In this document: piece after piece, positions 2,076 to 31,991 of the stretch
How the letters are laid out: each line of letters starts with the position of its first letter
Numbering within the stretch: the first letter of the stretch is position 1
Assembly: GCA_001430755.1 (NCBI GenBank)
Contig: CP013062.1
Location: 1,216,027-1,248,026 of the forward strand
DNA: 32,000 nt
Direction of reading: 5' to 3'
Source: Candidatus Peribacter riflensis
Lineage (GTDB): Bacteria > Patescibacteriota > Gracilibacteria > Peribacterales > Peribacteraceae
The notes under the pieces: generated by a model
The model's input: the letters and a program-made list of their open reading frames with translations, nothing else
Database searches by the model: none
Told to the model about the DNA's origin: nothing
Program-made: the position numbers and the translations under genes

Positions 2076-5000
2076 ATGTTCCGGGCGTTTCGCACTCTCT
2101 TCTCGGCAGCATTTCTCAAGGGCGGGTTCGGCCTTGTGGGCATTGTCGCGCTTGCGTGGGCGCTCAATCAGGATGTGCAGAGCCCGGGTTTTCTGCGGGC
2201 GCAGACAGCAACATCGGGCGCCTTGGTCTGTTGGGGGAATGACTACGGGTATGCTCCGCCAGCCGGCGATTGGACTGATGTGACGGCCGGCTCAGCGTTC
2301 GCGTGTGCCATACGCGCCGCCGATGGCACGGTGGCGTGCTGGGGGGATAACCCCTACGGCCAAACGAATGCGCCTGCCGGACGATTTCAGAAGATCGATG
2401 CCGGAACGATGCATATGTGTGGCATCAAAGAAGACGGCTCGGTGGCCTGCTGGGGGACGAACAGCCATGGAGAATCGAATCCTCCCACGGGTAGATTCAT
2501 CGACATTACGGCGTCCCTCTCGTATTCCTGTGGCATCAAAGAAGACGGAACGATCGTCTGCTGGGGAGAGAATGTGAAAGGACAATTGAATGCGCCAACC
2601 GGAACATTCGTGCAGCTGACGGCGGAGGGCAATCATGGGTGCGCCCTGAAAGCGGATGGAACAGTCATGTGTTGGGGGGAGAATGTCAGCGGGTCCACCA
2701 CTCCTCCGGCAGGCACGTTCCGTCTCGTCGAAGCGGGATATGCCTATACGTGCGGCATCAAGACGGATGGAACACTGCAATGCTGGGGTCATGGCGGCGA
2801 AGGGCAAACCACCGCGCCGGCGGGGGCATTTTCTGATGTGGAGCTGGGAGTGAACCATGCGTGCGGTCTCCGGCAGGACGGGACGATCGTGTGTTGGGGA
2901 ATGAGCGTCGGCGGTCAAACGAATCCGCCCACGGGAACCTTCACGGATATTGGTGTGGGGCTGTACCATGGTTGTGCGATTAGAGTCTCTGCGGGGAACA
3001 GTTCCTCATCCGTCTCCGTACAGTCCTGCCCATTGGGGTACACCTGCTCGAAGATCACGTCGTTTTCGTGCGGGTCCTTGCAGCTTCCGCTTTGCACACT
3101 CGAATACAGCGGCTCGTGCGGAACACCCTCCTGTCAAGGGGTGTGTTTCCGGTGTCAGTCGAGCTCTTCTTCCACTCCCTCTGCGAGTATCACAGGTTCT
3201 GTGCAGCTCCCCAGCAGTGTTCCTCGCGGGGGCACCATCGTGTACCGCGTGACTGCTACGAATAACGGCAGTCAGCCTCTTTCGCAAATCGACGTGTATG
3301 TGCAATCAGCCGCGGCCAACACATTTGATGCCTCGCTCTCTGATTCCAGATGTGTCGGAGGCACGAATACGCAGAGTGTTGCCAACTGCGCCATTCCAAC
3401 GCTGGCGGCCGGGCAGTCTGTGACTGTGGATGTCGGGTTCAGGCTAGGGGCCGCTTTGTCATGTTCTGCGGTCATCAATTCCACTGTCTCGGTCAGAAGC
3501 ACGACCCCCTCGACCGTCTGGAATAGTGAGCTATTGCTGACGCCGGTGACCTGCGTGTCATCGAGCTCGAGTAGTAGTGTGCAAGGGAGCAGTTGTGTCG
3601 ATTCTGACGGCGGTATGAACCTTGATGTCGCCGGCACCGTCACCAGCACGTCCTGCAGCGGTTTTCCGCCGACGTGCATCACGGAAACGCACGCAGATGA
3701 GTGCGATGATCGTCCCGGTTATGAGAATGATATTGTTGAGTATTTCTGTGGCGGAGCGACGACAACGGATTGCGCAAACGGAAAGATCTGCCGCAACGGC
3801 GCCTGTGTTTTGAGTGCTTCCTCCTCTTCCTCCGCTGGGCAATGTATCGAAGGCATGCAGTACTGGGTGCCGGTGACTCTGACGCCTGCCAAAGACCTCA
3901 GGGCCTCGTGGCCCGGCACCGGCGACGCGTCGTACGTCGCCTATCTGAAGAGCACCAACGAAGTTTATCTCTCGCGCCTGTCGCTCTCTGGTCTTTCGAT
4001 CACCAAGGCAACGGATGCGCGGATTTCGGGTGGCAGTTCGCTTGTAGATGTGGTGGCCCTCACGCCTTCCGATATCTTCGTGGTCTACGACGACTCTGCC
4101 AGCCAGCGCTGCAAAGCCGTTCTGGTGCGCTGGTCAGGCGGCAATGCTGTCATCGGAACGCCGGTGGATGTGCCGGCATCGCAGTACAACCCCCGCTGTG
4201 ACACCGTGCTCATCGCCCGCAAGCTCTCGGAGGGCAGGATTGCGCTGCTCTGGGGCCTTGACCAGAACTATCCCACGCGCCTCGGCGCGACTACGGCGAC
4301 GGTGGATGTCGCTGCCGGCACGATCGCATTTGGCCCCATTCCCCAGGAGCTCTCTTATTTCGTTGGGACCTATCAGGGCTCCCCCTTCGGGGACAGGGGC
4401 AAGCAGGTGGAGGTGGTGGTGCGCGATGCGAATACCATCGCGATCATCGGCAGGGCCGGCGGCGCCATAGTTTCTCAGCCCCGGTGGTTCGCCAATCTGT
4501 TCGCGTGGACCACATCCAGAAGCGGGGGAGTCGGTGCGGCGGGCATGTGGGTGCGCGATTGCGCGATCAACGGTTCCACGTTCACCTGCGATGATCAGTC
4601 GGGAGGCAGCGTTGGCGCAACCGGCTATGAAGTGAGCGGGGCAAAGGTCGGATCGAATTTCGTCGTTGCGCCGACGTTGATCGGCAGCGGGCCCGGCGTC
4701 TCGGTTGAGGGCAAGACCGTCTCGGGATGGGGAGGTGCTCAGATTCCGGAATGGGAGAATAGCTGGACCAGCTTTTATACCTTTGTGCCGCTCTCGAACG
4801 GGCAGTTTATGATCACGGCGAAGACGCAGAATTCCACGATGGCTGCGCTGGGGCGCATCACCACCAGCGATATCGTCTGGTCGGCAATTACATCTCCTCC
4901 CGGCAGTAAGGTAGTCATTCCGGCAGGCGCCCAGGACAAATTTCTCTTCTTCTACTATCCGGATTCCGGTCAGTCGAATGGCCAGACCGCTGTGACGGCC

Positions 5001-5723
5001 GGCCAGTACACGGCGGATTGTCCGGGTTGCGGCAACGGGCAGTTGGATCCGGGCGAACAGTGCGGCGAACCGGGCTTGTCGTGTTCCGCGGGCCGGACAT
5101 GCCAGAGCTGCCAGTGCACTCTCATTCCTGCATCATCCTCTTCATCGCGTCCCGCGGTCTGCGGCAATGGCCAACTCGAGGGAGTGGAACAGTGTGAACA
5201 GGGAGTCCCCTGCGCACTTTCGGGAAGGCAGTGCAATTTCGGCACCTGCCAGTGTGTGCTTATCGTGCCATCCTCTTCCAGCTCCAGCGCGTCATCCGTT
5301 CCGGTTACGCCGGCGTCTTCCTCGCTGTCCGCTGCCTGCGGCAACGGTGTCCTGAATACGGGGGAACGGTGCGATACGACGGGCAATCTCGGCTGCGCCG
5401 CAAGCGAGACGTGCCAGAGCTGCACGGCGTGCACCCGCTGCGGCAACTTCGTCCTCGAGGAGGGCGAAGGGTGCGAAGTCGGCATTGCGTGTTCCTCGAG
5501 TCTGGCCTGCAACATCGGCACCTGCCGGTGCGAGACGGTCTTTAGCGGGATACAGACGCAGGCGCCTACCTGCGGTGACTTCCGCATCCAGCCGGGGGAG
5601 GACTGCGAATACGGCATCACGACGCCACAGCCGCCCTGTACCGGCAACGCTGTCTGCAACGTGCAGACCTGTCGGTGCCCCGCCGGCACGGCGCGCCACC
5701 CCCGTAACGCCCGTCTTCAGTGA
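2076..5723 (+). CDS. Giant secreted/surface protein 1 (1215 aa): N-terminal hydrophobic signal/anchor, 7-blade RCC1-like propeller, DUF11/CARDB-like domain, CxDxD Cys module, unknown beta-rich domain, 5 type-A Cys-rich repeats. No C-terminal anchor tail.
   Basis: Uninterrupted 3.6 kb ORF. N-terminus GGFGLVGIVALAWAL. Seven ~37 aa CWG..G....P.G.F......H.CG...DG repeats. TIVYRVTATNNGSQPL resembles the DUF11 conserved repeat. Five CGNG..E..E.C..C..C..C.C repeats at the 3' end. It ends CRCPAGTARHPRNARLQ with no TGP/AAGAAAG/RRR tail. Confidence 0.9.
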   Translation: MFRAFRTLFSAAFLKGGFGLVGIVALAWALNQDVQSPGFLRAQTATSGALVCWGNDYGYAPPAGDWTDVTAGSAFACAIRAADGTVACWGDNPYGQTNAPAGRFQKIDAGTMHMCGIKEDGSVACWGTNSHGESNPPTGRFIDITASLSYSCGIKEDGTIVCWGENVKGQLNAPTGTFVQLTAEGNHGCALKADGTVMCWGENVSGSTTPPAGTFRLVEAGYAYTCGIKTDGTLQCWGHGGEGQTTAPAGAFSDVELGVNHACGLRQDGTIVCWGMSVGGQTNPPTGTFTDIGVGLYHGCAIRVSAGNSSSSVSVQSCPLGYTCSKITSFSCGSLQLPLCTLEYSGSCGTPSCQGVCFRCQSSSSSTPSASITGSVQLPSSVPRGGTIVYRVTATNNGSQPLSQIDVYVQSAAANTFDASLSDSRCVGGTNTQSVANCAIPTLAAGQSVTVDVGFRLGAALSCSAVINSTVSVRSTTPSTVWNSELLLTPVTCVSSSSSSSVQGSSCVDSDGGMNLDVAGTVTSTSCSGFPPTCITETHADECDDRPGYENDIVEYFCGGATTTDCANGKICRNGACVLSASSSSSAGQCIEGMQYWVPVTLTPAKDLRASWPGTGDASYVAYLKSTNEVYLSRLSLSGLSITKATDARISGGSSLVDVVALTPSDIFVVYDDSASQRCKAVLVRWSGGNAVIGTPVDVPASQYNPRCDTVLIARKLSEGRIALLWGLDQNYPTRLGATTATVDVAAGTIAFGPIPQELSYFVGTYQGSPFGDRGKQVEVVVRDANTIAIIGRAGGAIVSQPRWFANLFAWTTSRSGGVGAAGMWVRDCAINGSTFTCDDQSGGSVGATGYEVSGAKVGSNFVVAPTLIGSGPGVSVEGKTVSGWGGAQIPEWENSWTSFYTFVPLSNGQFMITAKTQNSTMAALGRITTSDIVWSAITSPPGSKVVIPAGAQDKFLFFYYPDSGQSNGQTAVTAGQYTADCPGCGNGQLDPGEQCGEPGLSCSAGRTCQSCQCTLIPASSSSSRPAVCGNGQLEGVEQCEQGVPCALSGRQCNFGTCQCVLIVPSSSSSSASSVPVTPASSSLSAACGNGVLNTGERCDTTGNLGCAASETCQSCTACTRCGNFVLEEGEGCEVGIACSSSLACNIGTCRCETVFSGIQTQAPTCGDFRIQPGEDCEYGITTPQPPCTGNAVCNVQTCRCPAGTARHPRNARLQ
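2217..2990 (+). repeat. Seven tandem ~37 aa (~111-114 bp) RCC1-like blades, a predicted 7-blade beta-propeller
   Basis: Seven in-frame units each contain CWG, then G(Q/E)..(A/P)P.G.F, then H.CG(I/L)..DG(T/S). This is consistent with the short RCC1_2-type repeat. Confidence 0.75.
5017..5678 (+). repeat. Five type-A Cys-rich repeats forming the stalk of protein 1
   Basis: Examples: CGNGQLDPGEQCGEPGLSCSAGRTCQSCQC, CGNGQLEGVEQCEQGVPCALSGRQCNFGTCQC, CGNGVLNTGERC..., CGNFVLEEGEGCEVGIACSSSLACNIGTCRC, CGDFRIQPGEDCE...CNVQTCRC. Poly-Ser linkers separate them. Confidence 0.8.
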
Positions 5724-8700
5724 TCCGCATGATTCTTTCTTCCCTCCGCTTCCGGCAGATTGCCATCCTCCTCGCACTCGTCGTGACGGGGATGCTCATC
5801 GGCAACTTCGTGGGCAGTGGAGGGCGCTGGCAGGCGCAGGTGGCGCCGCCGGCCGTCTGCGGCAACAGCCGGTGCGAGCTCGGCGAGCGGAGGACGCTGC
5901 GCATCCCGTCACTTCCGATTTTCAGAACCGAGAATGACGGTGAGGTCATCATCGGACACGCGGTCTCGTACGCGGGCGATACCGACGGCAACGGCGCGGG
6001 CGACCTGCTCGTTGTGGGGACAGAAGCAGATTACGGGTCATACGATTCTGCTGCCCGCAAGAAGGTGTGGCTCGTGCGCATGGAACAGGACGGACGGATG
6101 AAATCGTACAGCCAGATCGCCGGACCGGAGTGGGGGTACCAATATGCTGAAGGAGGTTTCGCTGCAGGAGTTACGCTGGTGCAAAATCCCCAGGGTACCC
6201 CCGTGTACGCGGTCAGCAGCAACGAAAACAGCTATCCGAACTACACGGCTATCCGTTTCTATGACCAGTCAGGAGGTGCGATGGGAACATCCGGCGACGG
6301 CATCACCAATCTGCCGCATCACGTGCTCGCCGGCATCGGCGACATCGACGGCAATGGCATCGGCGATCTGGCGGTGGCCAACCAGTATGCAGACACCCCC
6401 TACGGCATGGGCAAAATCACAGTGGTGTTGCTCGAAGCGAATTACTCGGTCAAGTCTACGCATGTCATCGCTTCGGAAGGGGACGGTTTCGGCACCGATG
6501 ATCTGGCGATGGGCGGTCGGTCGATCACAGCGCTCGGCGATCTGGATGGCGATGGCTTGAAAGAAATCGCCGTGGGTAACGGCAATACCGGCGGCGGTGA
6601 GATGGGTTCGGTGTACATCTTGTCGCTGCGCGCGGATGGCAGTGTGGCAGACAAGCGGCTGCTGACACCCGGCAGCGATTTCACGCTGCAGGGCGAGCTC
6701 AACGGGTTTGCCAACAGCCTCGCGGGGGTCGGCGACTGGAACGGCGACGGCGTGCCCGATCTCGCCGTGCTGTCGTACGAGTACGTCGAACACCCTCCTC
6801 TTGTCGGGTCACACGCGTCGCCTGTCATTCACATTCTCTTGCTCACGGCGCAGAAAGGGGTGGCGGGTACGCAATCCTTCCGGTATGCGGATCTGGGGGC
6901 GTTCGCCGGAGCCGCCGTTTTCGGCAACGGCTGGCCGCTTGCTGCCATGCCCGATCAGGACGGCGACGGCAAGATGGAACTGATCTTGGGCGTGCCCGGC
7001 GACGGCTCGTGCGGGGGGCAGATTTCGAACCCGCAGGGGGCAGTGCACGTGATCCTGTCGCGCGCGATGACCGCGTGCCCGGGCGACTGCAATTTCTGCC
7101 CGCAATTGTCCTACACGCCCGCGCGGTCATCGCGGTACTTCTTTACTCCCGGCTACAGCACCCTTCCCCCGCTCGCGAGCTGCGGTAACAGCCAGTGCAA
7201 CGCGGGCGAGATGAATCCGGTTGTGCTGCAGGGGGCGGATGCGAATCAGCCGTACGTTGCGCTCTCTCTGTTCATGGGCACGAAATCCCTCGATACCTTG
7301 GGCGATTTCGACGGAGACGGCGTCGATGATCTGGTACTGGGGGGCGTGACGCAGAATGTGGCGGGTGTGGATCGTTACGGCATGAACGAGGTGCAGATTG
7401 TCCGTCTCAATTCCAACGGCACCCAGAAATCGGTCACCCGCATCTACGAAGGCACAAGTGGGCTGCAGACGGGCGATGCCGATGGTTCGTACATTGGCGC
7501 CATCGTCGCCTCGATCGGAGATCTCGATGCGGACGGCGTGCGCGATATTGCCGTATCGGCATTCCCGCAGTCCCGCACTCCCACATCGTATGCAGTATGG
7601 ATTCTGCTGCTGCGGTCGGATGGCACGGTGAAGTCGGCGCGCAAGATCGCAGCGGGGCAGGGCGGATTCACCGGTTCCATTGCGGAGAAGTTTGGTACGG
7701 CGCTGGAGGGAATCGGCGACTTCGACGGCGACGGCGTGCCCGATCTGGCCGTGGGTGATCCTGGTTACAGCACCTACAACACGGCCAAGGAAGGTCGGGT
7801 GCACTTGCTCATGCTCAACCGCAACGGGACGGTGAAATCCTCCAGGACCCTGTGGGCCTCGTCGTTCACGGCTGTGCCGAATACCAGCGACATGCTGCGT
7901 GCCTCGCACCCGTACATCCGGTTCGGGTCTGCGGTTGCATTTCTGGGCGACGTGCACTCTGACGGCAGAAAGTTCCTGGCGGTGGGGGGCGGCGAGAGCG
8001 TCTGGACCATGGCGTTCAATGTCGACGGGAGCCTGAACACGGTCAAGCGCACGCAGGGGACCGCAGTGTCACCCGCCGGCGATCAGGATGGCGACGGAAA
8101 GACAGACCTCATAATTTCGTACTCGCCTGATGAGCCTGCAGAAATCTGCCCTGAGTGTGAGCCAACCTATGACACCGCGTGGGCTGCGTACTACTCCGTT
8201 CTCACGGACGGCACACTGGAGCAGCTGTGGAATGCCAGCTACGGCAGTCTCTATCTTCCGGGTGGTGGAGGAACATGGTGGGGGAATCTTCCGGGGCGGG
8301 AGGTGGCGACCATCCGCGACTTAGACGGTGACCAGAAGCACGAGTTCATCATGCTGGATAGCGGCTCATTTACCTGCAGGGGGTCGTCGCACGTCGGCTT
8401 GGCGTGGCTGCTCTTCTCCGGCAGTTTGGGGCCCCGCTGCGAGGCCGATTGCGCCAGTGTGAATTTCTGCGCGGTACAGCAGCAGGCACCCGTGTGCGGC
8501 AACGGTACGGCGGAGTCGGGAGAGCAGTGCGGCGAACCCGGACTCTCGTGTTCCACCGGTCAGACATGCCAGAACTGTCTGTGTGTGGGAGGTACCTCCT
8601 CTTCACAGCAGAGCTTGGACGGTACGTGGGTGAATTGCCCGGCAGGGTGGGCCTGCAACAAGAGTCTGGATAGTGGAGTCTGCAATACGCGGTCGTTGAA

Positions 8701-23800: not shown

Positions 23801-25434
23801 AGACCTGCAGCAGTTCCTGCCAGTGCATCGGTACGCCCATTCCGCCCAGCTCGTCCTCCCGTTCTTCTTCGCGCTCCTCATCTTCTACTTCACACTCCTC
23901 CTCCGCATCTTCCGTCTCGAGCATGACCATTGCATCGTCGAGCGCGTCGCACGGTGTCAACGCGCTCTGCGGCAACGGTCTGCAGGAGGGCACCGAGCAG
24001 TGCGAAGCAGGCATTCCCTGTTACACGGGCCTCGTCTGCATGAATTGCCTGTGCATCTTCCCGCCCTCCTCATCTGCGGCGCCTCCCTCCTCCACATCTT
24101 CCGACGGCTTTGCTCAGGTCACCTGCGGCAATAGCACGTTGGAGGAGTATGAACAGTGCGAGCAGGGATTCGACTTCTGCCCGCCCGATTTTCTCTGTGA
24201 CTACACTTCGTGCTTCTGTCTGCCATCCGGGATGTTCTCGAGTGCGTCCTCTGCGGGGGTGTCTGTCGGCAGCCAGCCCCTCTGTGGCAACGGCGTTCTG
24301 GAAGTCACAGAGCAGTGCGATACGGGGAATCCGTGCCCCGGCGGGGATTTCTGCACTATTGCGTGCATGTGTGAATCACGCGGGGGGCCTGTACCCGTCG
24401 CACCTTCCACTGTCGTGCGCTGCGGCGATGGAATTCTCGGAGCAGGGGAACAGTGTGAATCCGGCATGCCCTGCAGTGACGGCGCCTTCTGCACCACATC
24501 CTGCCTCTGCCTCCGGAGTGAAACGGTCTCCCTCTGTGGCAACGGCGTGCTTAACCTCCGTGAGGAGTGCGACGACGGCAACACCGAGAATGGTGACGGC
24601 TGTGACCGGTCCTGCCGGAGAGAGGCTGCCGTTTTTGCACAGACCTGCGGTAACGGAGAACTGGAAGGAGGGGAACAGTGCGAGTTGAACAGTCTCTGCC
24701 CCCGTCCGGGGGACCAGTGCCTGAATTGCCAGTGCCGTGCCGTGTCGGAGTCGGCCTGCGGCAATGGGGTTCTCGAATTCCCCGAGGAGTGCGAGACCAC
24801 AGCCGCGTGTGCGGGTCTCTCGCACTTCTGTGCCAGTTGCCGCTGTGTCCCGTTTGTCTGCGGCGACAATGTCCGCGATCTCGGCGAGGAGTGTGACGAC
24901 GGCAACACGGCATCCGGCGACGGCTGCTCTGCCACCTGCCAGCGCGAGACGATCAATCTCATTGCCTCTCAGGCCATCTGCGGCAACGGTCTCATCGAGC
25001 GGGATGAGGAGTGTGACGACGGCAACACGGTTTCGGAGGATGGATGTTCCGCTGTCTGCCAGCGCGAAGTTCTGCCACCACGGTTAGAACTCACACTCCT
25101 TCCCGAGCAGCCCGCCTCTTCGTCTGTTGCCTTTCAGCCTGTTTCCAGCGCGCCTGCAGTGACCGTCCCGGTGCGCACCGGTCCTACCCCCAAGAGGGCA
25201 GTGTCTTCCGTTCCAGCCTTCTTTCCCGCTGCACCCGTTCCCTCTGCCCTTGCTCCTTCTATTCTCGCCACAACCATCGTCCAGCCGCCCTCCTGGCAGC
25301 CATATGCTTCCGTCGTTCCCTACGCTCCGCCCACGGGCCCCGTGGGTGCCACCGGTCCAGCCTCTGTCGCGGCGATGGCCGCAGGTGCAGCGGCGGGGTG
25401 GGCGTGGATGCGACGGAGAAAGAACAGGCGGTAG
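20893..25434 (+). CDS. Giant surface protein 5 (1513 aa), paralog of protein 2: FG-GAP propeller, nested FNADG-type propeller, 11 Cys-rich repeats, spacer, TGP-type C-terminal anchor
   Basis: 4.5 kb ORF. The start is uncertain (GTG 20893, ATG 20902 or ATG 20950), and all lie before the helix GFVVLGIAGVAVLGWI. GDLDADQIPDVVV, GDIDSNGVPDLAL and GDIDGDGQPDIMIG loops. Tail GPVGATGPASVAAMAAGAAAGWAWMRRRKNRR. Confidence 0.9.
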   Translation: MQQMANSSFEQKVIRSAGNMPDFLRSGAAASSLHRRRGFVVLGIAGVAVLGWISLQSRQSMHMFTAQVMGDTPYCGNNIRETGEQCDSGYAWGRIEGCGINQVCQRCQCVTLTSANQHCIGTACYAGVNNCPSGTPACDVTCACSAIWWPHCGDARCMSFEQGAGGRIIHPSATGPIQNRVEGFGMDIVPMGDLDADQIPDVVVLATGNGTPFVSGTIHVIYMNRNGTAKRIDPLPYVPERQGLAPLKLAYAMESVGDIDSNGVPDLALYAWTGTYTEGDYGNDEEIRILRLQRTAEGVSVLADRANPEPQEQARQGYGYDLAYLGNGRLAAYLGRGDSFDEAVGIFQISSNGNIAQIGTVQGVSGGNVLGAPGDLNGDGANDLLWNRTVAFLSQDGTSVLSQQTIAFGSPYFNDGFIHSNPWGDTDGNGVPDLLLGMVSQQGKYENIGIVGKVLLERTSGNPPLRVKSSQIMYSPEQPARFGGAFGRAAANVGDIDGDGQPDIMIGSPETFFCVDGTQVHGCSGTHPGAVWVYLSGAGVPICTADCGSAPISPSSSSAPIPPSSSSVPIPPSSSSVPIIPSSSSQAAVCGDGRFAATKQCEPSGMLQTLPTNGIPDAVRAGDFNADGNADLVTLNLSPNRTGSINVFLGAGDGSFSPGANYQVGNVQSVFQAADAQGDGKLDLLLGATHIMRGNGDGTFQPVSSLLPQGADVAVGDFNEDGRPDIFTTTVSSPNSPHVEQLFAGQAGGGFAAGVTVAEFPHPWSNIVTADFDADGHLDVAYLPTGNSNDPPGLTANFTVQILYGNGNGAFISVPLTLSSWTSGATGLWMADINGDGRSDLYMDGNGNVGPFWLNNGNRTFEAKNNYMGNLNDPAALIDVDGDGKADVITGGRTASPTIEIHKGNGDGSFVQSPLYSFGVTYPLWHSEGNIAQADFDHDGRLDFAIARTSIADAGANFIIVQISPCAPGQTCSSSCQCIGTPIPPSSSSRSSSRSSSSTSHSSSASSVSSMTIASSSASHGVNALCGNGLQEGTEQCEAGIPCYTGLVCMNCLCIFPPSSSAAPPSSTSSDGFAQVTCGNSTLEEYEQCEQGFDFCPPDFLCDYTSCFCLPSGMFSSASSAGVSVGSQPLCGNGVLEVTEQCDTGNPCPGGDFCTIACMCESRGGPVPVAPSTVVRCGDGILGAGEQCESGMPCSDGAFCTTSCLCLRSETVSLCGNGVLNLREECDDGNTENGDGCDRSCRREAAVFAQTCGNGELEGGEQCELNSLCPRPGDQCLNCQCRAVSESACGNGVLEFPEECETTAACAGLSHFCASCRCVPFVCGDNVRDLGEECDDGNTASGDGCSATCQRETINLIASQAICGNGLIERDEECDDGNTVSEDGCSAVCQREVLPPRLELTLLPEQPASSSVAFQPVSSAPAVTVPVRTGPTPKRAVSSVPAFFPAAPVPSALAPSILATTIVQPPSWQPYASVVPYAPPTGPVGATGPASVAAMAAGAAAGWAWMRRRKNRR
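21345..22533 (+). repeat. FG-GAP-type propeller of protein 5, bracketed by Cys half-motifs
   Basis: CGDARCMSFEQG lies upstream. Loops GDLDADQIPDVVV, GDIDSNGVPDLAL, GDLNGDGANDLLW, GDTDGNGVPDLLLG and GDIDGDGQPDIMIG. The downstream flank is ICTADCGS. Confidence 0.7.
22540..22647 (+). repeat. 27-bp x 4 in-frame tandem repeat encoding (A/V)PI(S/P/I)PSSSS
   Basis: The peptide is APISPSSSS APIPPSSSS VPIPPSSSS VPIIPSSSS. The unit ccgattcccccatcttcgtcttctgtt occurs twice without change. Confidence 0.9.
22660..23826 (+). other. Type-A Cys repeat split by an inserted FNADG/VCBS-like beta-propeller (protein 5), the counterpart of 8828-10027
   Basis: First half CGDGRFAATKQCEPS starts at 22660. Insert with FNADGNADLV, AQGDGKLDLL, FNEDGRPDIF, FDADGHLDVA, INGDGRSDLY, VDGDGKADVI and FDHDGRLDFA. 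Second half SPCAPGQTCSSSCQC ends at 23826. Confidence 0.75.
23968..25068 (+). repeat. Nine-repeat C-terminal Cys stalk of protein 5 (types A and B mixed)
   Basis: Includes CGNGLQEGTEQCEAGIPCYTGLVCMNCLC, CGNGVLEVTEQCDTGNPCPGGDFCTIACMC, CGNGVLNLREECDDGNTENGDGCDRSCRRE, CGNGELEGGEQCELNSLCPRPGDQCLNCQC, CGDNVRDLGEECDDGNTASGDGCSATCQRE and CGNGLIERDEECDDGNTVSEDGCSAVCQRE. Confidence 0.85.
24940..25299 (+). repeat. Copy 2 of the 360 bp identical block (matches 20383-20742)
   Basis: The evidence is the same as for copy 1. Confidence 0.85.
25336..25434 (+). other. Putative C-terminal sorting/anchor signal of protein 5
   Basis: GPVGATGPASVAAMAAGAAAGWAWMRRRKNRR followed by the stop. Confidence 0.6.
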
Positions 25435-25515
25435 AACGTGCGATCATTGGTTACTGATCAGAACAACACTGTGTCAATCAGGCAGCGGCAGCGGTTGTTG
25501 CTACACTCCAATGCA

Positions 25516-28500
25516 ATGATCAGCATGTTACGGCGTCTTCTCGGGAGCAGCGGCAAGCTTCTGGCGGTAGTGCTGGGGATTGTTCTTACTGTGACGATTT
25601 TCAATCGTTCTTCACTCCGCATTCCCTGGCTGGCGCAGGAGATGCCTGCGGATCCATGGGGTCTGGCGTGCGGTGGTACCTCGTTCTGCAATGAGTTTTC
25701 TTGGTGGTCGTTCACCTGTAATCCGGCGGCCAAATGTTGCGCAAAGCGTAATGGGGCATACGTTCAGGTTGTCGCGTGTGAGAATGTGAGCCCATCTGTC
25801 ACTCTTCCCGCGCACGGGTGGTGTGACTCTCCTGCACAGGTGGGGGATCTTTGCTACGACCCTGCTTCATGCACGTACGGAACGTGCGTTGAGTATGCTG
25901 GCCCATACTACCTCGAATGCAATCTTGCGGGCGGGGGGTACTGTCCCGAGGGCACCGGTTGTGACACGACGGGTGGTTGTGTTCTCTCCACTCCTTTCTG
26001 CGAAACAGACAGCGACTGCAACGATGGTAATTTACAGACGGTAGATACGTGTTCTGTCGGGGAGTGTAGCAATGTTCCAGGGGCCTATCCCGCCTCCTCA
26101 TCCACTCCGCCTCCTCCACCACCTCCCTCATCCTCCTCGGCTCCGGGAGGCTGCGCGTGCCCCCCCAATCCTGTCCCCGGCTGTGATCCTTTTGGTTGCC
26201 TCAATGGTCCTCCGCTTCCGGCTTTCTGTGTGTTAGTCGGCACGCCAGTCTTCAATCCTACAACCTGCGCAAACGAGTGCACCGGTTGCGATATGGAATG
26301 CGATACGGTCTATCCGCCTACTCCTTCTTCCGTCGCTCCCATCACGCTCCCTTGTGGCGGCGGGTCGGTGAGCGCTTCGACCAATGTCTTCGTGCAGGGG
26401 TCTGGAGGATGCAACTTCGCCGTCAGTACAACATTGACAGGATCACCCCACGGTTCCATCGCCTCGCCGCCAGGTGCCTCCCTGTATTGTCCTGGAGATA
26501 CGGTGACGATTGGCATGTCCTTCTCCTCGGCGGGAACCTACACGCTCGAGACCTGTTCAGAGTTCGATACCGCCTACTACGAGATGCAGGTCGACTATTA
26601 CTGCCAGCAAGAGACATGCGCCAACGGAATCTGGGGGCCAACGATTCCGGATCTCTGTACGCCGACACCAGGGGGAGGAAGCTGGTCAACGCCCTTCACG
26701 AATACGCCCCAATGCTCTCCACTGACCATTACGGTGAATGCGGCTACGGGCTGCTCCTCGGGCGGGAGCGGGGGCTCATCCGGCGGGTCGGGCGGTTCTT
26801 CGGGAGGGTCGGGTGGCTCTTCCGGTGGTTCCGGCGGATCGAGCAGCCATGCCTTCAGCAGCAGCTCCGGCGGCGGGAGCAGCGGAGTCAGCTCCGCAGG
26901 GGCCAGTAGCAGTTCACGGAGCAGTAGCTTCTCCGGTGTGAGCAGTATGGGCAGTTCGGCGAGTAGCACGCAGAGCCATTCCTCCAGTATCCCCATCCAG
27001 AGCTCTTCCGGCTCTGTTCCCTCGTCATACTCCTCCGGCATTTCCATTCAGAGTTCCGTCGGCACATCCTCTTTCAGATCTCTCGCGTCCTCGCGGTCAT
27101 CCTCCTCTTCCACGGGCTACTGCGGCAACGGGGTGCTTGATCCCATAGAAGACAGCCAGTGCGAGCCGAGTATCGGGTACGATAAGTGCTTTTTCTACGG
27201 TTTTGTCTGCGATGTGAGTACCTGCCGTTGTACGCCCTCCAGCACGAGCAGCAGTTACTCCTCCTCTTCCTGCCCGGGCGACCTCTGTAGCGGCCCGTAC
27301 GATCCCAACGGCGATGAGATCTGCGCTTCAATAGGTCTTTCCTGTGAGGAGCTCTCCGAACCTCCCTGCGCACGCTGCATCGGCGGATCTTCCTCCTCCA
27401 TCATCGTGCAGAGCAGCGCGACTTCCACCTCCTCCACCTCCTCCACCCTCTGCCCCGGCGATCTCTGCTCCGGCCCGTACGATCCCAACGGCGACAGTGT
27501 CTGCGCCTCGTATGGCCTTCTCTGTGAGGAGCTCTCCGAACCTCCCTGCGCACGCTGCATCGGCGGATCCTCCTCCTCCATCATCATCGTGCAGAGCAGT
27601 GCTACTTCCACCTCTTCCTCCCCCACCTCTCCGGGTTGCGGCAACGGCCTGCTCGATGCCGGCGAAGAGTGTGACGACAGTAACTGGAATGACGGCGACG
27701 GCTGCGATGATCTCTGCCGCATCGAGACAGGCCCGTGGTGCGGCAATGATGTGCTCGACCTGGGCGAACAGTGTGACGATGGTAACTGGGATGACGGCGA
27801 CGGCTGCAGCCGCTTCTGCCGAGATGAAGCCACGTTGGCTCCCCGCTGTGGTGACGGCTTCCTCGATCCCGGGGAGGAGTGCGACGACGGAAACCCCCGG
27901 AACGGTGACTACTGTTCCGTCCTCTGCCGTTGGGAGGGTCTCGAGCGGTGTGCCAACAACATCATCGAACCGCCCGAACAGTGTGATGACGGGAACACGC
28001 GTGACGGCGACGGCTGCAGCCGCTTCTGCCGCACAGAGCAGATTCTCGGCGGCCCGCTCTGCGGTGACGGCCTGCTCGATCCCGGCGAAGAGTGCGACGA
28101 CGGCAACACCGGCCCGGAGGACGGCTGCGACGCCTGGTGCCGCTGGGAGGGCTTCAACCGCTGCGGCAACCACATTCTCGAATGGGGCGAACAGTGCGAC
28201 GACGGCAACCTTTTCAACAGCGACGGCTGTTCCACCCTCTGCCAGCGGGAGCAGACCGCACCACTCTCTTCCTGCGGCGACGGGCGGAGGGCGAAGACCG
28301 AGCAGTGTGACGATGGCAATCCCCTCGACGGAGATGGCTGTGATCGCGGCTGCCGCATCGAATCCTTCTCCGCCGCCGCCGCCCTTCTCTGCGGCGACGG
28401 CCTGCGCGATGTCGGAGAGGAGTGTGATGATGGCAACCTCTCTAACGGTGACGGCTGCTCCTCACACTGTCTCTTCGAGCAGGGCCGTTGCGGCGACTCC

Positions 28501-29049
28501 ACTGTCCAGCGTGCATTGGGTGAACAGTGCGAACCTTCCCTCCACAACGCCTCTCTGCCGTACGGCTGCACCTCCACCTGTCGCTTCCTCCACCGTGAGT
28601 GCGGCAATGGCATTCCCAATCTGGGTGAGGAGTGTGACAGCGGCCCCCTCAATTCCAATCTGCCCGATGCCCCCTGCCGTCCCGATTGCTCCCTGCCCCA
28701 CTGCGGCGACATCGTCCTCGACCCGGTCGAGTTCTGCGATGATGGCAACCTGCTGGGCGGCGATGGCTGTGACGAATACTGCCGCCGGGAGGGAGGCTTG
28801 ATCACGCAGAGATCCTCTGCTGCTTCCACCTTTCCGTCGCTGCGGCCCGCTGCACCCGATGTCCGCGCACCAGCCCAGCCGCATGCGCCCCTCTTCGCCA
28901 CCCTGCAGACCTTCGAGCCCTGGAGGAGGGGATCCACCGTACGCGTGCCCACCCACGCTCCCGCCGGTGAGACCGGCCCTGCGAGCATGGCCGTGATGGC
29001 TGCCGGTGCTGCAGCAGGTCTGGCGTGGATGCGGAGGAAACGAAGTTGA
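25516..29049 (+). CDS. Giant surface protein 6 (~1177 aa): unique Cys-rich head, Gly/Ser and Ser-rich tracts, 2 CPGDLCSGPYDPNGD modules, 1 type-A-like and 11 mostly type-B Cys repeats, spacer, ETGP-type C-terminal anchor
   Basis: The ORF is open from GTG 25438. I prefer ATG 25516 because it yields a canonical signal peptide, MISMLRRLLGSSGKLLAVVLGIVLTVTIF. Repeats of the form CGDG.LDPGEECDDGN...GDGC...C..E. Tail AGETGPASMAVMAAGAAAGLAWMRRKRS. Confidence 0.85.
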   Translation: MISMLRRLLGSSGKLLAVVLGIVLTVTIFNRSSLRIPWLAQEMPADPWGLACGGTSFCNEFSWWSFTCNPAAKCCAKRNGAYVQVVACENVSPSVTLPAHGWCDSPAQVGDLCYDPASCTYGTCVEYAGPYYLECNLAGGGYCPEGTGCDTTGGCVLSTPFCETDSDCNDGNLQTVDTCSVGECSNVPGAYPASSSTPPPPPPPSSSSAPGGCACPPNPVPGCDPFGCLNGPPLPAFCVLVGTPVFNPTTCANECTGCDMECDTVYPPTPSSVAPITLPCGGGSVSASTNVFVQGSGGCNFAVSTTLTGSPHGSIASPPGASLYCPGDTVTIGMSFSSAGTYTLETCSEFDTAYYEMQVDYYCQQETCANGIWGPTIPDLCTPTPGGGSWSTPFTNTPQCSPLTITVNAATGCSSGGSGGSSGGSGGSSGGSGGSSGGSGGSSSHAFSSSSGGGSSGVSSAGASSSSRSSSFSGVSSMGSSASSTQSHSSSIPIQSSSGSVPSSYSSGISIQSSVGTSSFRSLASSRSSSSSTGYCGNGVLDPIEDSQCEPSIGYDKCFFYGFVCDVSTCRCTPSSTSSSYSSSSCPGDLCSGPYDPNGDEICASIGLSCEELSEPPCARCIGGSSSSIIVQSSATSTSSTSSTLCPGDLCSGPYDPNGDSVCASYGLLCEELSEPPCARCIGGSSSSIIIVQSSATSTSSSPTSPGCGNGLLDAGEECDDSNWNDGDGCDDLCRIETGPWCGNDVLDLGEQCDDGNWDDGDGCSRFCRDEATLAPRCGDGFLDPGEECDDGNPRNGDYCSVLCRWEGLERCANNIIEPPEQCDDGNTRDGDGCSRFCRTEQILGGPLCGDGLLDPGEECDDGNTGPEDGCDAWCRWEGFNRCGNHILEWGEQCDDGNLFNSDGCSTLCQREQTAPLSSCGDGRRAKTEQCDDGNPLDGDGCDRGCRIESFSAAAALLCGDGLRDVGEECDDGNLSNGDGCSSHCLFEQGRCGDSTVQRALGEQCEPSLHNASLPYGCTSTCRFLHRECGNGIPNLGEECDSGPLNSNLPDAPCRPDCSLPHCGDIVLDPVEFCDDGNLLGGDGCDEYCRREGGLITQRSSAASTFPSLRPAAPDVRAPAQPHAPLFATLQTFEPWRRGSTVRVPTHAPAGETGPASMAVMAAGAAAGLAWMRRKRS
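26761..26844 (+). repeat. (GGSGGSS) x 4, a perfect peptide repeat encoded with different synonymous codons in each unit
   Basis: The four units are ggc ggg agc ggg ggc tca tcc / ggc ggg tcg ggc ggt tct tcg / gga ggg tcg ggt ggc tct tcc / ggt ggt tcc ggc gga tcg agc. Confidence 0.9.
27271..27558 (+). repeat. Two copies, 180 bp apart, of a 36 aa five-Cys module CPGDLCSGPYDPNGD..CAS.GL.CEELSEPPCARC, each followed by GGSSSSII(I)VQSSATSTSS
   Basis: The copies lie at 27271-27378 and 27451-27558. They share long identical nucleotide runs, e.g. tgtgaggagctctccgaacctccctgcgcacgctgcatcggcggatc. Confidence 0.85.
27637..28791 (+). repeat. Eleven tandem Cys repeats, mostly type B (DUF4215/TIGR02232-like), forming the stalk of protein 6
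   Basis: Includes CGNGLLDAGEECDDSNWNDGDGCDDLCRIE, CGNDVLDLGEQCDDGNWDDGDGCSRFCRDE, CGDGFLDPGEECDDGNPRNGDYCSVLCRWE and CGDIVLDPVEFCDDGNLLGGDGCDEYCRRE. Confidence 0.85.
27838..28742 (+). repeat. Copy 1 of a ~905 bp block that appears base-identical to 30780-31684
   Basis: By-eye alignment at an offset of 2942 bp finds the first mismatch at 28743 (t) versus 31685 (c). Off-frame ORFs in the supplied track are identical between copies, e.g. 28092-28310 equals 31034-31252, and the minus-strand ORFs share long identical stretches. Confidence 0.85.
28963..29049 (+). other. Putative C-terminal sorting/anchor signal of protein 6
   Basis: AGETGPASMAVMAAGAAAGLAWMRRKRS followed by the stop. Confidence 0.6.
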
Positions 29050-29126: not shown

Positions 29127-31991
29127 ATGAAACTGCGTCTTGTCCCACTGGAGGGTAAAACAGCGAGAGGTGCGATAGCGATCATTGTCATATGTTCGAT
29201 GGCATTCTTTGTCTCCCTCCTCGATTCATCTGCCATTCGTTCGGTGTGGAGGCGGGCCCAGGTGCCGGGGGCACTTCCTACCGCCTGCTGCGGTTTCAAT
29301 AATTGCGGGTGCATTGCGGAGAACGTGACGATGGAAGACTGTCTCACCATGGGTGGGTACTCGCTCCAGTCGGGCTTTGACTGCGGGGCCTGCACCCCCA
29401 TCGGTGTCGGGGATTGCACCTATTGTGAGGCATCGTTCGCCCCGGTCTGTGGCGGATTCTGTCCGGGTGGCCAGAGGTGCCTGCCCGGTTTTGGTTGTGA
29501 TGCTTCGGATCCTACGTTATGCGCAGAATACTGCGAATGTTCTCCAATCGATCCAGGTTCCTCGTCGAGCGTTCAGAGTTCCAGTGTATCCTCTTCCAGC
29601 TTCCGTTCCTCATCCAGTTCGCAGACTTCCTGCGCCCCTACGGGTGGCGGTTGCCCCAGTGGATTCTCGTGCACTCTCAGTTTGCAGAGTGATTGCACGT
29701 GTGCAGCGATGACGTGTTCAGACCCTGATGATTGTTGTTTTGAAACAGGAGGGTCATGTGATGCCGGATTGTGTGGGGTGGGTTCGTGTGTCAGACAGGT
29801 GCCCTGCGGGTTTCCTTCCAGCGATTCCTCATCAAGCAGCACCGTCTCATCTGGTTTTTCAAGCACCAGCAGCATCCTCCCGTCCAGTTCCTCTGCGGGC
29901 GGCGTTGCTTCATCCAGCTCCCTTGGCATTTCTTCGAGCAGCGCTCTCCCTTCCAGCTCTTCGGCAGCCAGCAGCAGTGTGACAAGTAATCAGAGCTCCT
30001 CCAGCACACAGAGCAGCAGCGCTTCGAGTGTGAGCAGTAGCCGGAGCAGTCATGCTCTCAGTTCGACATCCAGTCTGAGCAGCTCCGCAAGCAGCGGGCA
30101 GAGCCTTTCCTCCAGCATTCCCATCCAGAGCTCCACCGGTCCCGTTCCCTCGTCCTACTCCTCTAGTATTTCCATCCAGAGCTCCACCGGCACATCCTCC
30201 AGGAGTTCCTCCCGCTCCTCTTCCTCCTCCTCCTCGGCAGGGACGTCGATGCGGTCCAGCTCTTCTTCTTCTGTGCACTGCGATGCCTGTACGCTCGGGG
30301 GCGGGTGCGCGTTGTGCGGCGGAGCCGGTGAAGTCTGTGCGGTGCTCACGGATGGCGGCACGTTTGGCGGTGGAGGGTACGAATGTTTCAATCTTCCGGG
30401 CAATCATCCGGAATTTACGATCTGCGACTGCGGCGGATCATTCTCTTCCGCTTCCTCCTCTGTTCCTGTCTGCCCCGGCGATCTCTGCTCCGGCCCGTAC
30501 GATCCCAACGGCGACGATGTCTGCGCCTCGTATGACCTGATCTGCGAGGAGCTCTCAGAACCTCCCTGCGCACGCTGCATCGGCGGATCCTTCTCCTCCA
30601 TCATCGTGCAGAGCAGCGCTGCTTCTGCCAACTGTCCCGGCGATCTCTGCTCCGGCCCGTACGATCCCAACGGCGATACGGTCTGCGCCTCGAATGGCCT
30701 TCTCTGTGAGGAGCTCTCCGAACCTCCCTGCGCACGCTGCGTCGAGACATCTGCCTCTTCTTCCAGTACCTCCTCTATCGCTCCCCGCTGTGGTGACGGC
30801 TTCCTCGATCCCGGGGAGGAGTGCGACGACGGAAACCCCCGGAACGGTGACTACTGTTCCGTCCTCTGCCGTTGGGAGGGTCTCGAGCGGTGTGCCAACA
30901 ACATCATCGAACCGCCCGAACAGTGTGATGACGGGAACACGCGTGACGGCGACGGCTGCAGCCGCTTCTGCCGCACAGAGCAGATTCTCGGCGGCCCGCT
31001 CTGCGGTGACGGCCTGCTCGATCCCGGCGAAGAGTGCGACGACGGCAACACCGGCCCGGAGGACGGCTGCGACGCCTGGTGCCGCTGGGAGGGCTTCAAC
31101 CGCTGCGGCAACCACATTCTCGAATGGGGCGAACAGTGCGACGACGGCAACCTTTTCAACAGCGACGGCTGTTCCACCCTCTGCCAGCGGGAGCAGACCG
31201 CACCACTCTCTTCCTGCGGCGACGGGCGGAGGGCGAAGACCGAGCAGTGTGACGATGGCAATCCCCTCGACGGAGATGGCTGTGATCGCGGCTGCCGCAT
31301 CGAATCCTTCTCCGCCGCCGCCGCCCTTCTCTGCGGCGACGGCCTGCGCGATGTCGGAGAGGAGTGTGATGATGGCAACCTCTCTAACGGTGACGGCTGC
31401 TCCTCACACTGTCTCTTCGAGCAGGGCCGTTGCGGCGACTCCACTGTCCAGCGTGCATTGGGTGAACAGTGCGAACCTTCCCTCCACAACGCCTCTCTGC
31501 CGTACGGCTGCACCTCCACCTGTCGCTTCCTCCACCGTGAGTGCGGCAATGGCATTCCCAATCTGGGTGAGGAGTGTGACAGCGGCCCCCTCAATTCCAA
31601 TCTGCCCGATGCCCCCTGCCGTCCCGATTGCTCCCTGCCCCACTGCGGCGACATCGTCCTCGACCCGGTCGAGTTCTGCGATGACGGCAACCTGCTGAGA
31701 GGGGATGGCTGCGACGAGTACTGCCGGCGCGAGAGCGACCTGTTCCCCCAGTATTCTTCCACTTCCTCCCTCCCCTCCCTGCGACCGGCGGCATCCCTCA
31801 CCCGCACGTCCGATCAAGCCCATCCGCCCCTCTTCGCCACCCTGCAGACCTTCGAGCCCTGGAGGAGGGGATCCACCGTACGCGTCCCCACCCACGCTCC
31901 CGCCGGTGAGACCGGCCCCGCTGCTATGGCCGTGATGGCTGCCGGTGCTGCGGCAGGTCTGGCGTGGATGCGGAGGCGCAGAAAACCGTAA
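29127..31991 (+). CDS. Giant surface protein 7 (954 aa), paralog of protein 6: unique Cys-rich head, ~150 aa Ser-rich tract, 2 CPGDLCSGPYDPNGD modules, 9 mostly type-B Cys repeats, spacer, ETGP-type C-terminal anchor
   Basis: 2.9 kb ORF from ATG 29127. N-terminal helix GAIAIIVICSMAFFVSLL. The 3' 1.2 kb is nearly identical to protein 6. Tail AGETGPAAMAVMAAGAAAGLAWMRRRRKP, with TAA stop at 31989-31991. Confidence 0.9.
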   Translation: MKLRLVPLEGKTARGAIAIIVICSMAFFVSLLDSSAIRSVWRRAQVPGALPTACCGFNNCGCIAENVTMEDCLTMGGYSLQSGFDCGACTPIGVGDCTYCEASFAPVCGGFCPGGQRCLPGFGCDASDPTLCAEYCECSPIDPGSSSSVQSSSVSSSSFRSSSSSQTSCAPTGGGCPSGFSCTLSLQSDCTCAAMTCSDPDDCCFETGGSCDAGLCGVGSCVRQVPCGFPSSDSSSSSTVSSGFSSTSSILPSSSSAGGVASSSSLGISSSSALPSSSSAASSSVTSNQSSSSTQSSSASSVSSSRSSHALSSTSSLSSSASSGQSLSSSIPIQSSTGPVPSSYSSSISIQSSTGTSSRSSSRSSSSSSSAGTSMRSSSSSSVHCDACTLGGGCALCGGAGEVCAVLTDGGTFGGGGYECFNLPGNHPEFTICDCGGSFSSASSSVPVCPGDLCSGPYDPNGDDVCASYDLICEELSEPPCARCIGGSFSSIIVQSSAASANCPGDLCSGPYDPNGDTVCASNGLLCEELSEPPCARCVETSASSSSTSSIAPRCGDGFLDPGEECDDGNPRNGDYCSVLCRWEGLERCANNIIEPPEQCDDGNTRDGDGCSRFCRTEQILGGPLCGDGLLDPGEECDDGNTGPEDGCDAWCRWEGFNRCGNHILEWGEQCDDGNLFNSDGCSTLCQREQTAPLSSCGDGRRAKTEQCDDGNPLDGDGCDRGCRIESFSAAAALLCGDGLRDVGEECDDGNLSNGDGCSSHCLFEQGRCGDSTVQRALGEQCEPSLHNASLPYGCTSTCRFLHRECGNGIPNLGEECDSGPLNSNLPDAPCRPDCSLPHCGDIVLDPVEFCDDGNLLRGDGCDEYCRRESDLFPQYSSTSSLPSLRPAASLTRTSDQAHPPLFATLQTFEPWRRGSTVRVPTHAPAGETGPAAMAVMAAGAAAGLAWMRRRRKP
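30471..30740 (+). repeat. Two further copies of the CPGDLCSGPYDPNGD..CAS..L.CEELSEPPCARC module (protein 7)
   Basis: The copies lie at 30471-30578 and 30633-30740. They carry the same peptide core as 27271-27558. Confidence 0.85.
30780..31684 (+). repeat. Copy 2 of the ~905 bp identical block (matches 27838-28742)
   Basis: The evidence is the same as for copy 1. Confidence 0.85.
30789..31733 (+). repeat. Nine tandem Cys repeats forming the stalk of protein 7, almost base-identical to the last nine repeats of protein 6
   Basis: From CGDGFLDPGEECDDGNPRNGDYCSVLCRWE to CGDIVLDPVEFCDDGNLLRGDGCDEYCRRE. The offset to protein 6 is 2942 bp. Confidence 0.85.
31902..31991 (+). other. Putative C-terminal sorting/anchor signal of protein 7
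   Basis: AGETGPAAMAVMAAGAAAGLAWMRRRRKP followed by the stop. Confidence 0.6.

Follow-up and report, generated by a model that had tools for sequence, protein, structure and literature searches.

The window analyzed here comprises the final 32,000 bases of the 1.25-Mb genome of Candidatus Peribacter riflensis, a bacterium of the candidate phyla radiation (CPR; Peregrinibacteria), and is largely filled by an array of seven giant genes, g1 to g7, encoding predicted cell-surface proteins. Listing of open reading frames (ORFs) and direct translation placed seven + strand ORFs of 954-2104 aa between positions 2076 and 31991, with intergenic gaps of, in order, -4, 57, 125, 18, 3, and 77 nt. Together, the seven ORFs account for 29,640 nt (92.6% of the window), and their span covers 93.5%. 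Translation confirmed the coordinates of an original prediction for this DNA, which had described seven consecutive ORFs of these sizes with gaps of -4 to ~125 nt and a fill of ~94%. All seven proteins have an N-terminal hydrophobic segment and are rich in cysteine (4.8-8.9%) and serine (10-18%), with poly-Ser linkers between modules. A Cys-free Pro/Ser/Ala-rich spacer of 62-103 aa and a conserved C-terminal tail follow in six of the seven (g2 to g7). The claim that all share one plan thus stands for g2 to g7 and fails for g1, whose C-terminal end (…CPAGTARHPRNARLQ) carries neither spacer nor tail or anchor.

The anatomy of each gene is given below with the gene numbers of Anantharaman et al. 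(2016, PeerJ 4:e1607) and, for the stalks, with A and B denoting two types of Cys repeat described further on; all features of the array lie on the + strand. In g1 (2076-5723; 1215 aa; PER-ii_58_32_1094, ALM10492), the signal/anchor helix is followed by an RCC1 propeller (aa ~45-305), a Cys knot, a DUF11 Ig-like domain (380-477), a CxDxDG module (505-582), a ~395-aa domain without Pfam match (590-984), and five 6-Cys variant repeats (985-1208). The largest gene, g2 (5720-12034; 2104 aa; _1095; annotated start at the ATG at 5729), encodes a signal anchor, two FG-GAP regions (aa ~60-920), a Cys linker, a VCBS propeller nested in a split repeat (1037-1443), a 12-repeat stalk (1478-1987; ten repeats of type B, then two of type A), a 98-aa spacer, and the tail. 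Next comes g3 (12092-16879; 1595 aa; _1096), with a signal, a Cys knot, seven type B repeats (117-397), a CxDxDG module, four GW.CD.D…NHGF domains (484-1020), a weak repeat-like unit (1031-1077), a nine-repeat stalk in the order AABBBBBAA (1093-1471), a 103-aa spacer, and the tail. The same stalk order is found in g4 (17005-20874; 1289 aa; _1097), where a signal anchor, CxDxDG modules, a region without Pfam match (aa ~145-285), and a seven-bladed YVTN propeller (aa ~370-690) precede the nine repeats (788-1174), a 97-aa spacer, and the tail.

The product of g5 (20893-25434; 1513 aa, or 1510 aa from the annotated start at 20902; _1098) consists of a signal anchor, one repeat, an FG-GAP propeller (~160-540), a VCBS propeller nested in a split repeat (590-984), a nine-repeat stalk (1026-1397), a 97-aa spacer, and the tail. 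In g6 (25438-29049; 1203 aa, or 1177 aa from the annotated start at 25516; _1099), a signal anchor leads into a Cys-rich head without Pfam match (60-445), a Gly/Ser-rich linker, two CPGDLC…CARC modules (612-720), a stalk of 11 mostly canonical DUF4215 repeats (734-1124), a 63-aa spacer, and the tail. Finally, g7 (29127-31991; 954 aa; _1102) has a signal anchor, a Cys-rich head without Pfam match, a long Ser-rich linker, two CPGDLC modules, nine DUF4215 repeats (555-874), a 62-aa spacer, and the tail.

Curated hidden Markov models (HMMs) agreed with the head assignments first made for g1, g2, g4, and g5, and the searches suggested with them matched RCC1, FG-GAP/VCBS, YVTN, and DUF4215/TIGR02232 alike. 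The RCC1-like head of g1 gave six RCC1_2 matches together with DUF11. The FG-GAP/VCBS heads of g2 and g5 scored 136 and 97 bits to PF01839 (FG-GAP) and 197 and 169 bits to PF13517 (FG-GAP_3, VCBS-type), with 16 and 10 DxDxDG-type motifs, respectively, and the g4 head contained seven YVTN repeats (TIGR02276). The four GW-CD-D/NHGF domains proposed for g3 proved to be a real domain of ~110-125 aa present in four aligned copies. Alignment, AlphaFold2 (AF2) modeling, and profile searching delimit these as four tandem beta-sandwich domains at 13541-15151, with no Pfam family; the AF2 model of the domain is all-beta (pLDDT 75.6), and its fold matches were generic Ig-like only. A word-indexed homologue search with a single copy returned nothing; an exhaustive profile search then gave thousands of relatives, counted as 5,688 cluster representatives at E ≤ 1e-3 and often carrying 2-15 tandem copies, and the ten proteins of this family that were checked had no informative Pfam partner domain.

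The ten head segments without a family (g1 590-984, the g3 head domains, the g6 and g7 heads, and the CPGDLC modules) yielded nothing usable in Pfam at E ≤ 1, and PDB sequence searches with g3 and with the g6 stalk found no match. No HExxH motif occurs in g1 to g7, and Pfam and curated HMM scans matched no enzyme family in the heads. The heads are propellers, beta-sandwiches, or Cys knots and are non-enzymatic. This domain content supports the early view of a surface-protein locus as opposed to a metabolic operon.

A further module of ~70 aa, CxDxDG…EYxC…CxxGxC, recurs among the heads at 3588-3821 (g1), 13304-13516 (g3), and 17878-18099 and 17161-17418 (g4), with poly-Ser linkers on both sides. 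Its g1 copy gave sub-threshold Pfam matches only (DUF7107, E 0.06; ADAMTS_CR_2, E 0.12) and the g4 segment none.

The stalks consist of 5-12 tandem disulfide-type modules of ~35 aa each. A repeat HMM built from the window recognized ~77-80 solid Cys units and a regular expression 77, close to the ~78 units counted originally. Two types were distinguished: type A, the canonical DUF4215 form with four Cys (CGNGxxExGEECDDGNxxxGDGCSxxCxxE), and type B, a variant with six (CGNGxxExxEQCExxxxCxxGxxCxxCxC). The two align column for column, type B being type A plus one Cys pair, and the AABBBBBAA stalks of g3 and g4 are collinear. Membership in TIGR02232 is clear for g2 to g7, which scored 68-305 bits (cut-off 20.8); PF13948 (cut-off 27 bits) scored 54-153 bits for g3 to g7 and, marginally below the cut-off, 26.2 bits for g2. 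Neither model matched g1, whose five 6-Cys repeats were recognized only by the window-built HMM. An AF2 model of a B-A-A stalk segment shows small, mostly coil modules (pLDDT 75, pTM 0.33), and this model would fit the expected beads-on-a-string arrangement.

In two genes, a propeller interrupts a stalk repeat. A type B repeat of g2 is split into an N half (aa 1037-1052) and a C half (1424-1443) by an inserted VCBS/FG-GAP_3 propeller (8828-10048), and the FG-GAP_3 matches fall between the two halves. In g5, a VCBS-type propeller is likewise inserted between aa 605 and 965 of a split type B repeat (22660-23844). Each half-repeat alone matches just its own half of the repeat HMM; when joined, the halves align over the full model with 44.7 bits (g2) and 35.0 bits (g5), compared with 49.2 bits for an intact repeat.

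So many cysteines could also belong to a structural envelope or matrix, in which a disulfide-cross-linked coat or fiber layer would use the heads for self-assembly. The very high Cys content, the large share of the cell's cysteine and the heavy genomic investment in envelope synthesis reported for such proteins and this genome (PeerJ 4:e1607), the many paralogues with identical stalks, and an anchorless g1 that could act as matrix partner would all suit a coat. The cysteines, however, follow a regular pattern of 4 or 6 per module that agrees with disulfides inside each module, the heads show a variety of ligand-binding-type folds instead of one shared assembly domain, and the published annotation of the genome lists separate S-layer genes; we thus consider a coat quite improbable.

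The C-terminal tails of g2 to g7 align as …P-[VA]-G-[SAE]-T-G-P-A-[AS]-x-A-x-[MI]-A-A-G-A-A-[AS]-G-x-A-W-[MS]-R-R-[RK]…, with 19 invariant columns. Three parts can be recognized: a P-[VA]-G-x-T-G-P-A motif, a hydrophobic stretch of 18 residues that is rich in Ala and Gly and contains a conserved AAGAAAG, and a cluster of Arg/Lys. The g4 tail (20782-20871) reads GPVGSTGPASVALMAAGAAAGLAWMRRKRKP, and the others lie at 11945-12031 (g2), 16778-16876 (g3), 25339-25431 (g5), 28960-29046 (g6), and 31899-31988 (g7). Among 120 DUF4215 homologues, 14 carried the tail, small proteins included. A scan of one genome per species confirmed at least three tail loci, all in metagenome-assembled genomes (MAGs) of Peribacteria, and a profile search of 5.8 billion proteins found 33 fragments with the tail signature, the few taxon-named ones being Peregrinibacteria/Peribacteria. 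From these searches, the tail appears as a lineage-restricted, uncurated three-part signal, met here only in Peregrinibacteria. Its conservation on unrelated passenger domains, across paralogues and genera, argues that an enzyme recognizes it and speaks against a plain membrane anchor.

A miniature form of the architecture, with a signal anchor, a single DUF4215 repeat, a Gln/Pro-rich spacer, and the tail, was also observed (L011 9565-10270, L012 8873-9509). It belongs to another Peregrinibacteria-like genome, is apparently split by a frameshift, and is flanked by pfpI and rplO within the cluster of ribosomal-protein genes.

Three architectures from other organisms bear on how these proteins may be read. 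The closest characterized analogue is TraA, the kin-recognition receptor of Myxococcus xanthus, which likewise has a type I signal, a variable head, a Cys-repeat stalk, and a motif-helix-Arg sorting tag; its tandem Cys-rich repeats have been proposed to form a rigid stalk, and its MYXO-CTERM tag requires an invariant Cys. DUF4215/TIGR02232 was itself defined on Myxococcus proteins. TraA differs in its PA14 head, TIGR04201 repeats, MYXO-CTERM tag, and envelope, whereas seven paralogues stand here in one array, and neither PA14 nor TIGR04201 was matched in the window proteins at E ≤ 0.01. Wall-anchored adhesins of the LPXTG/MSCRAMM type share the signal, the N-terminal binding region, the repeat stalk, the Pro-rich wall spacer, and the T-G motif followed by a hydrophobic segment and a basic tail; unlike the disulfide knots found here, their stalks are Ig-like with isopeptide bonds, and the sortase found at another locus (L009, below) lies outside classes A-F. 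Judged by analogy of plan, TraA and wall-anchored adhesins fit better than integrins.

The integrin likeness proposed originally is therefore to be kept in part. Integrin alpha chains likewise place an FG-GAP propeller, whose DxDxDG loops are of the Ca-binding type, above a stalk and finish with one hydrophobic segment and a few basic residues; this gross topology holds, with the FG-GAP propeller itself in two of the seven proteins (g2 and g5). The stalk, in contrast, is made of DUF4215 repeats and has no thigh or calf domains, the window encodes neither a GFFKR motif nor a beta subunit with its betaI/VWA domain, and the tails, which end in W-[MS]-R-R-[RK], look like a sorting signal. With the pappalysins PAPP-A and PAPP-A2, just one Cys module of ~35 residues is held in common, the window proteins having neither a metzincin domain nor HExxH: a single stalk module could be overlaid on a module of 33-39 residues in their cryo-EM structures, with 46-52% identity and an rmsd of 1.4-3.1 Å. 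The 'pappalysin' labels in KEGG are explained by this resemblance. Sequence searches with g3 and the g6 stalk gave no whole-sequence match to any PDB chain.

The same topology would also suit uncleaved type I membrane receptors, in which the C-terminal helix would span the membrane permanently, leaving the basic tail in the cytoplasm, perhaps with a signaling role. A signal at the N terminus, a large ectodomain, and one hydrophobic segment ahead of a basic C-terminal end are all present, the DxDxDG-bearing propellers of g2 and g5 would be at home in such receptors, and processing of the tail is itself a prediction. We nevertheless judge permanent receptors unlikely: the 18-residue Ala/Gly-rich segment falls under the 1.6 Kyte-Doolittle cut-off and is not flagged as transmembrane, its conservation among paralogues and genera is far above what a passive anchor needs, the cytoplasmic part would amount to 5-10 Arg/Lys residues without a motif, the ~100-aa Pro/Ser/Ala spacer is typical of wall-spanning regions, and neither an integrin beta-type partner nor a calf/thigh domain is present.

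If the tail is a sorting signal, the enzyme that reads it has to be sought in the genome. The published annotation of P. riflensis includes two sortase-like genes, 264 and 350, one of which adjoins a DUF4215-type gene (both known from the annotation alone), as well as DsbB, two DsbA-like proteins, a FemAB/MurN-type cross-bridge enzyme, and a weak rhomboid-like gene; no exosortase (EpsH), archaeosortase, or CAAX/CPBP protease appears in this annotation of the complete genome. In a Peribacteraceae MAG (L009 6169-7766), a tail-bearing DUF4215 protein of 1514 aa is followed by lgt and then by a sortase that scores 63.7 bits to PF04203 and 48.4 bits to TIGR01076 and stays under the cut-offs of every class A-F model. 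A metagenome scan with this sortase returned a single 1.7-kb contig. CPR bacteria have no Gram-negative envelope or outer membrane, and more than half encode a sortase. Generic features of LPXTG-type sorting are present as well, namely, the three-part signal, the N-terminal signal-type helix, and sortase-like genes in the annotation. Because of the sortase-like genes, the L009 linkage, the lack of an annotated exosortase-type enzyme, and the CPR envelope, a variant sortase signal, cut at [VA]-G-x-T↓G, is the most likely reading of the tail.

The tail could alternatively serve a non-sortase enzyme, such as an exosortase/archaeosortase-like, rhombosortase-like, or other intramembrane protease reading TGP and AAGAAAG. 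Three tails pass the cut-off of 16 bits for TIGR02595 (PEP-CTERM) with 17.9-19.8 bits, all tails give weak MYXO-CTERM and IPTL-CTERM matches, and public labels of tail fragments are inconsistent (LPXTG, MYXO-CTERM, or PEP-CTERM). A conserved intramembrane segment of the GxxxG type, moreover, points to such systems more than to a sortase signal, and the annotation includes a weak rhomboid-like gene. The PEP-CTERM alignments, however, begin at model position 4 and miss the PEP motif. The TIGR03901 (MYXO-CTERM) scores of 11.7-15.1 bits lie below the cut-off of 20, and the lack of Cys in all six tails excludes the MYXO-CTERM chemistry. The annotation, as noted, is devoid of exosortases, archaeosortases, and CAAX/CPBP proteases, an outer membrane is missing in CPR bacteria, and a sortase adjoins a tail-bearing gene in L009. 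An enzyme of this kind thus seems improbable, although an intramembrane enzyme must be taken seriously as a competitor of the divergent sortase, which we prefer.

The 3' ends of the array, in contrast to the unrelated heads, are partly homogenized in two gene pairs. A perfect direct repeat of 905 nt covering stalk repeats is shared by g6 and g7 (27838-28742 = 30780-31684), within 1.2 kb that the two genes have in common at 95.8% identity. A second perfect direct repeat, of 360 nt, covers the last repeat and the spacer of g4 and g5 (20383-20742 = 24940-25299), within 529 nt in common at 94% identity. From the 905-nt block we infer a recent gene conversion or duplication. If the two copies recombined, the head of g6 would be joined to the tail of g7 and the head of g7 would be lost; a variant of this kind was not seen.

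Repeats of this kind raise the possibility of an assembly artefact or of a string of decaying pseudogenes. Five independent contigs end at window positions 26956-28463, at or near the 905-nt repeat (just two inside it), and automatic gene finders call g7 only in pieces. The g6-g7 junction is crossed only by closed genomes, and this junction and the exact 905-nt identity rest on those curated sequences. Nevertheless, none of the ORFs is interrupted over its 954-2104 codons, and HMM-supported domains are spread along them; this includes g7, whose N-terminal half is homologous in frame to g6. Identical sequence occurs, moreover, in five closed genomes and many independent metagenome contigs. Comparison with independent assemblies, a check suggested along with the original prediction, showed six loci 99.92-100% identical to the window over g2 to g6 with zero frameshifts; five of the six, all but the closed genome, are those that end at or near the repeat. 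Exact copies of the g4 and g1 proteins were present on 17-24 contigs from NCBI, JGI, ENA, and Logan, among them the closed genome CP013064.1 (1,248,112 bp), from which the window differs by a single synonymous A/C difference at 24801. An artefact or pseudogene string is thus very improbable. Apparent strain indels in locus L004 turned out to be runs of N and were discarded as variation.

The ensemble as such has been reported before, in descriptive form. Anantharaman et al. described a "14-gene cluster (7.2 ± 2.4% cysteine)" in Candidatus Peribacter riflensis whose proteins are large, Cys-rich, and extracellular, with signal peptides, weak similarity to Myxococcus Cys-rich repeats and pappalysin, and a probable role in attachment. 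Genes g1 to g7 are RIFOXYC2_FULL_PER-ii_58_32_1094, 1095, 1096, 1097, 1098, 1099, and 1102 in Table S4 of that paper; the lengths and Cys counts given there agree with ours, as do the coordinates in Table S2. The opinion that the ensemble was not a described system has therefore to be withdrawn, all the more so as signal, variable head, Cys-repeat stalk, and sorting tag make up the published TraA design. Compared with the present analysis, the 2016 account contains no domain-level anatomy, sorting signal, or homogenization of 3' ends, and the gain here is anatomy. New are the uncurated sorting tail, for which a divergent sortase is the candidate enzyme, the 6-Cys DUF4215 variant, the nested propellers, and the homogenized 3' modules.

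The published cluster also takes in genes 1089-1091 and two housekeeping genes. Genes 1090 and 1091, upstream of the window on the opposite strand (locus L013 1-7457), belong to a second giant Cys-rich class with 9-12% Cys and a repeat unit of ~45 aa, 'GACC…C…N.T…C'; gene 1091 ends in a hydrophobic stretch without basic tail and has no conserved tail. Since 1091 lacks the basic tail and both genes are of the other Cys class, the 14-gene cluster is heterogeneous, and the seven-gene same-direction block is a natural sub-unit of it.

In our favored explanation, the array equips a small-genome and probably symbiotic CPR bacterium with a repertoire of binding proteins for its cell surface (adhesins or recognition receptors), with a tail sorted most likely by a sortase; we put the probability of this explanation at roughly 0.6. 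The adhesin or recognition reading proposed originally is the same inference that the authors of the genome drew, and it is reasonable as a prediction. In the mechanism we propose, the proteins would be exported by Sec and oxidized to disulfides outside the membrane by the DsbB and DsbA-like proteins of the genome. The tail would hold them in the membrane and then be processed as a sorting signal, most likely by a divergent sortase cutting at T-G and linking the protein to peptidoglycan. The spacer would cross the wall, and the stiff stalk would push the head past wall and S-layer. Recombination would keep stalk and anchor uniform, and exchange or divergence of the heads would place several binding specificities side by side. 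The product of g1 would be released, or held non-covalently or by other proteins.

Several observations weigh against this explanation. The tail motif is [VA]-G-x-T-G and not L-P-x-T-G, with Gly in place of Pro, and TIGR01167 (LPXTG) scores the tails at 13.3-15.0 bits, below its cut-off of 15.9, aligning over model positions 6-34 only. Sortase signals normally have no sequence-conserved hydrophobic segment, and the conserved AAGAAAG, of GxxxG type, would be no less in keeping with an intramembrane sorting enzyme than with a sortase. Adjacency to a sortase was read directly at one locus (L009), a second case coming from the table of the 2016 paper only, and the neighborhoods of five other tail-bearing genes contained no sortase; in two of these, a GT2 and a PMT gene stood next to the tail-bearing gene. 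Furthermore, g1 has no anchor, the 905-nt repeat is much longer than short reads, so that part of its perfection could reflect assembly curation, and the organism is uncultivated.

A bolder account, which we hold only tentatively, would make the tail a distinct Peregrinibacteria-specific signal, not covered by any curated model and read either by a divergent sortase that belongs to none of the classes A-F or by an intramembrane enzyme, and the array a set of recombining cassettes with homogenized stalk and anchor and exchangeable heads, some of which are nested in a stalk repeat. The signal consensus on this account is [AG]-P-[VAI]-G-x-T-G-P-A-[AS]-x-A-x-[MI]-[AG]-A-G-A-A-A-G-x-x-W-x-R-R-[RK]. 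If true, such a cassette system would vary the specificity of host or partner attachment in a CPR symbiont.

A large part of bacterial diversity falls into the CPR, whose members apparently live attached to other cells by largely uncharacterized molecules. With seven binding heads on a common stalk and anchor, encoded in a 1.25-Mb genome, this locus is among the clearest candidate attachment sets. Its anatomy supplies a defined sorting signal and a candidate enzyme open to experiment, and it corrects misleading public labels (pappalysin, integrin, lipoprotein, serine/threonine kinase, and PEP-CTERM/MYXO-CTERM/LPXTG). In UniRef, g1 is named 'non-specific serine/threonine protein kinase' and g5 'lipoprotein', and domain scans support neither label. 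The full 954-aa ORF of g7 is absent from public protein collections, where automatic calls give a 580/581-aa C-terminal piece and 51- and 72-aa fragments in other frames; in the 2016 paper, its coordinates cover the whole ORF and its length is listed as 581.

Smaller sequence features of the array were also noted. A motif [RWQT]-x-A-Q-[VTE] lies 8-20 residues past the N-terminal hydrophobic segment in g1 (aa 40-45), g2 (aa 36-41), g5 (aa 63-68), g6 (aa 64-69), and g7 (aa 41-46), and also in gene 1091 (L013) and the L008 orthologue. This is farther from the segment than the c-region of a textbook signal-peptidase site would lie, and the motif may be a cleavage site leaving an N-terminal Gln or a juxtamembrane motif. 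In the g5 linker, a 27-nt tandem repeat (22552-22628; 2.9 copies, 98% identity) encodes PSSSSVPIP units, and in g6 a 21/42-nt repeat (26747-26837) encodes GGS units. Anantharaman et al. reported that Cys-rich proteins of this sort differ between strains, with length variation of tens of bp, and these two tracts are likely its sites. The published annotation further lists a POMT/GT39 gene with a DPM1-like neighbor (the GT2/POMT pair, genes 60 and 61), and the poly-Ser linkers may, given this gene, be O-mannosylated. In two other Peregrinibacteria genomes (L014 10001-13165; P0191 contig), a small DUF4215-plus-tail gene stands beside GT2 (DPM1-like) and PMT (GT39) genes.

An Rfam search of the window gave no match, and a scan of the window found promoter-like sequences as often as expected by chance and terminator-like ones only slightly over the shuffle mean. 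The idea of an array abutting the origin and replicated head-on was dropped, as the start of the record is not the origin and the first gene of the genome encodes a hypothetical protein. Upstream of the array, positions 1-404 are the 3' end of rluB. The following long GTG-started ORF, g0 (263-1954), is overstated: the annotated gene, of the beta-CASP/MBL ribonuclease type (K07576), starts at 491 and encodes 487-488 aa.

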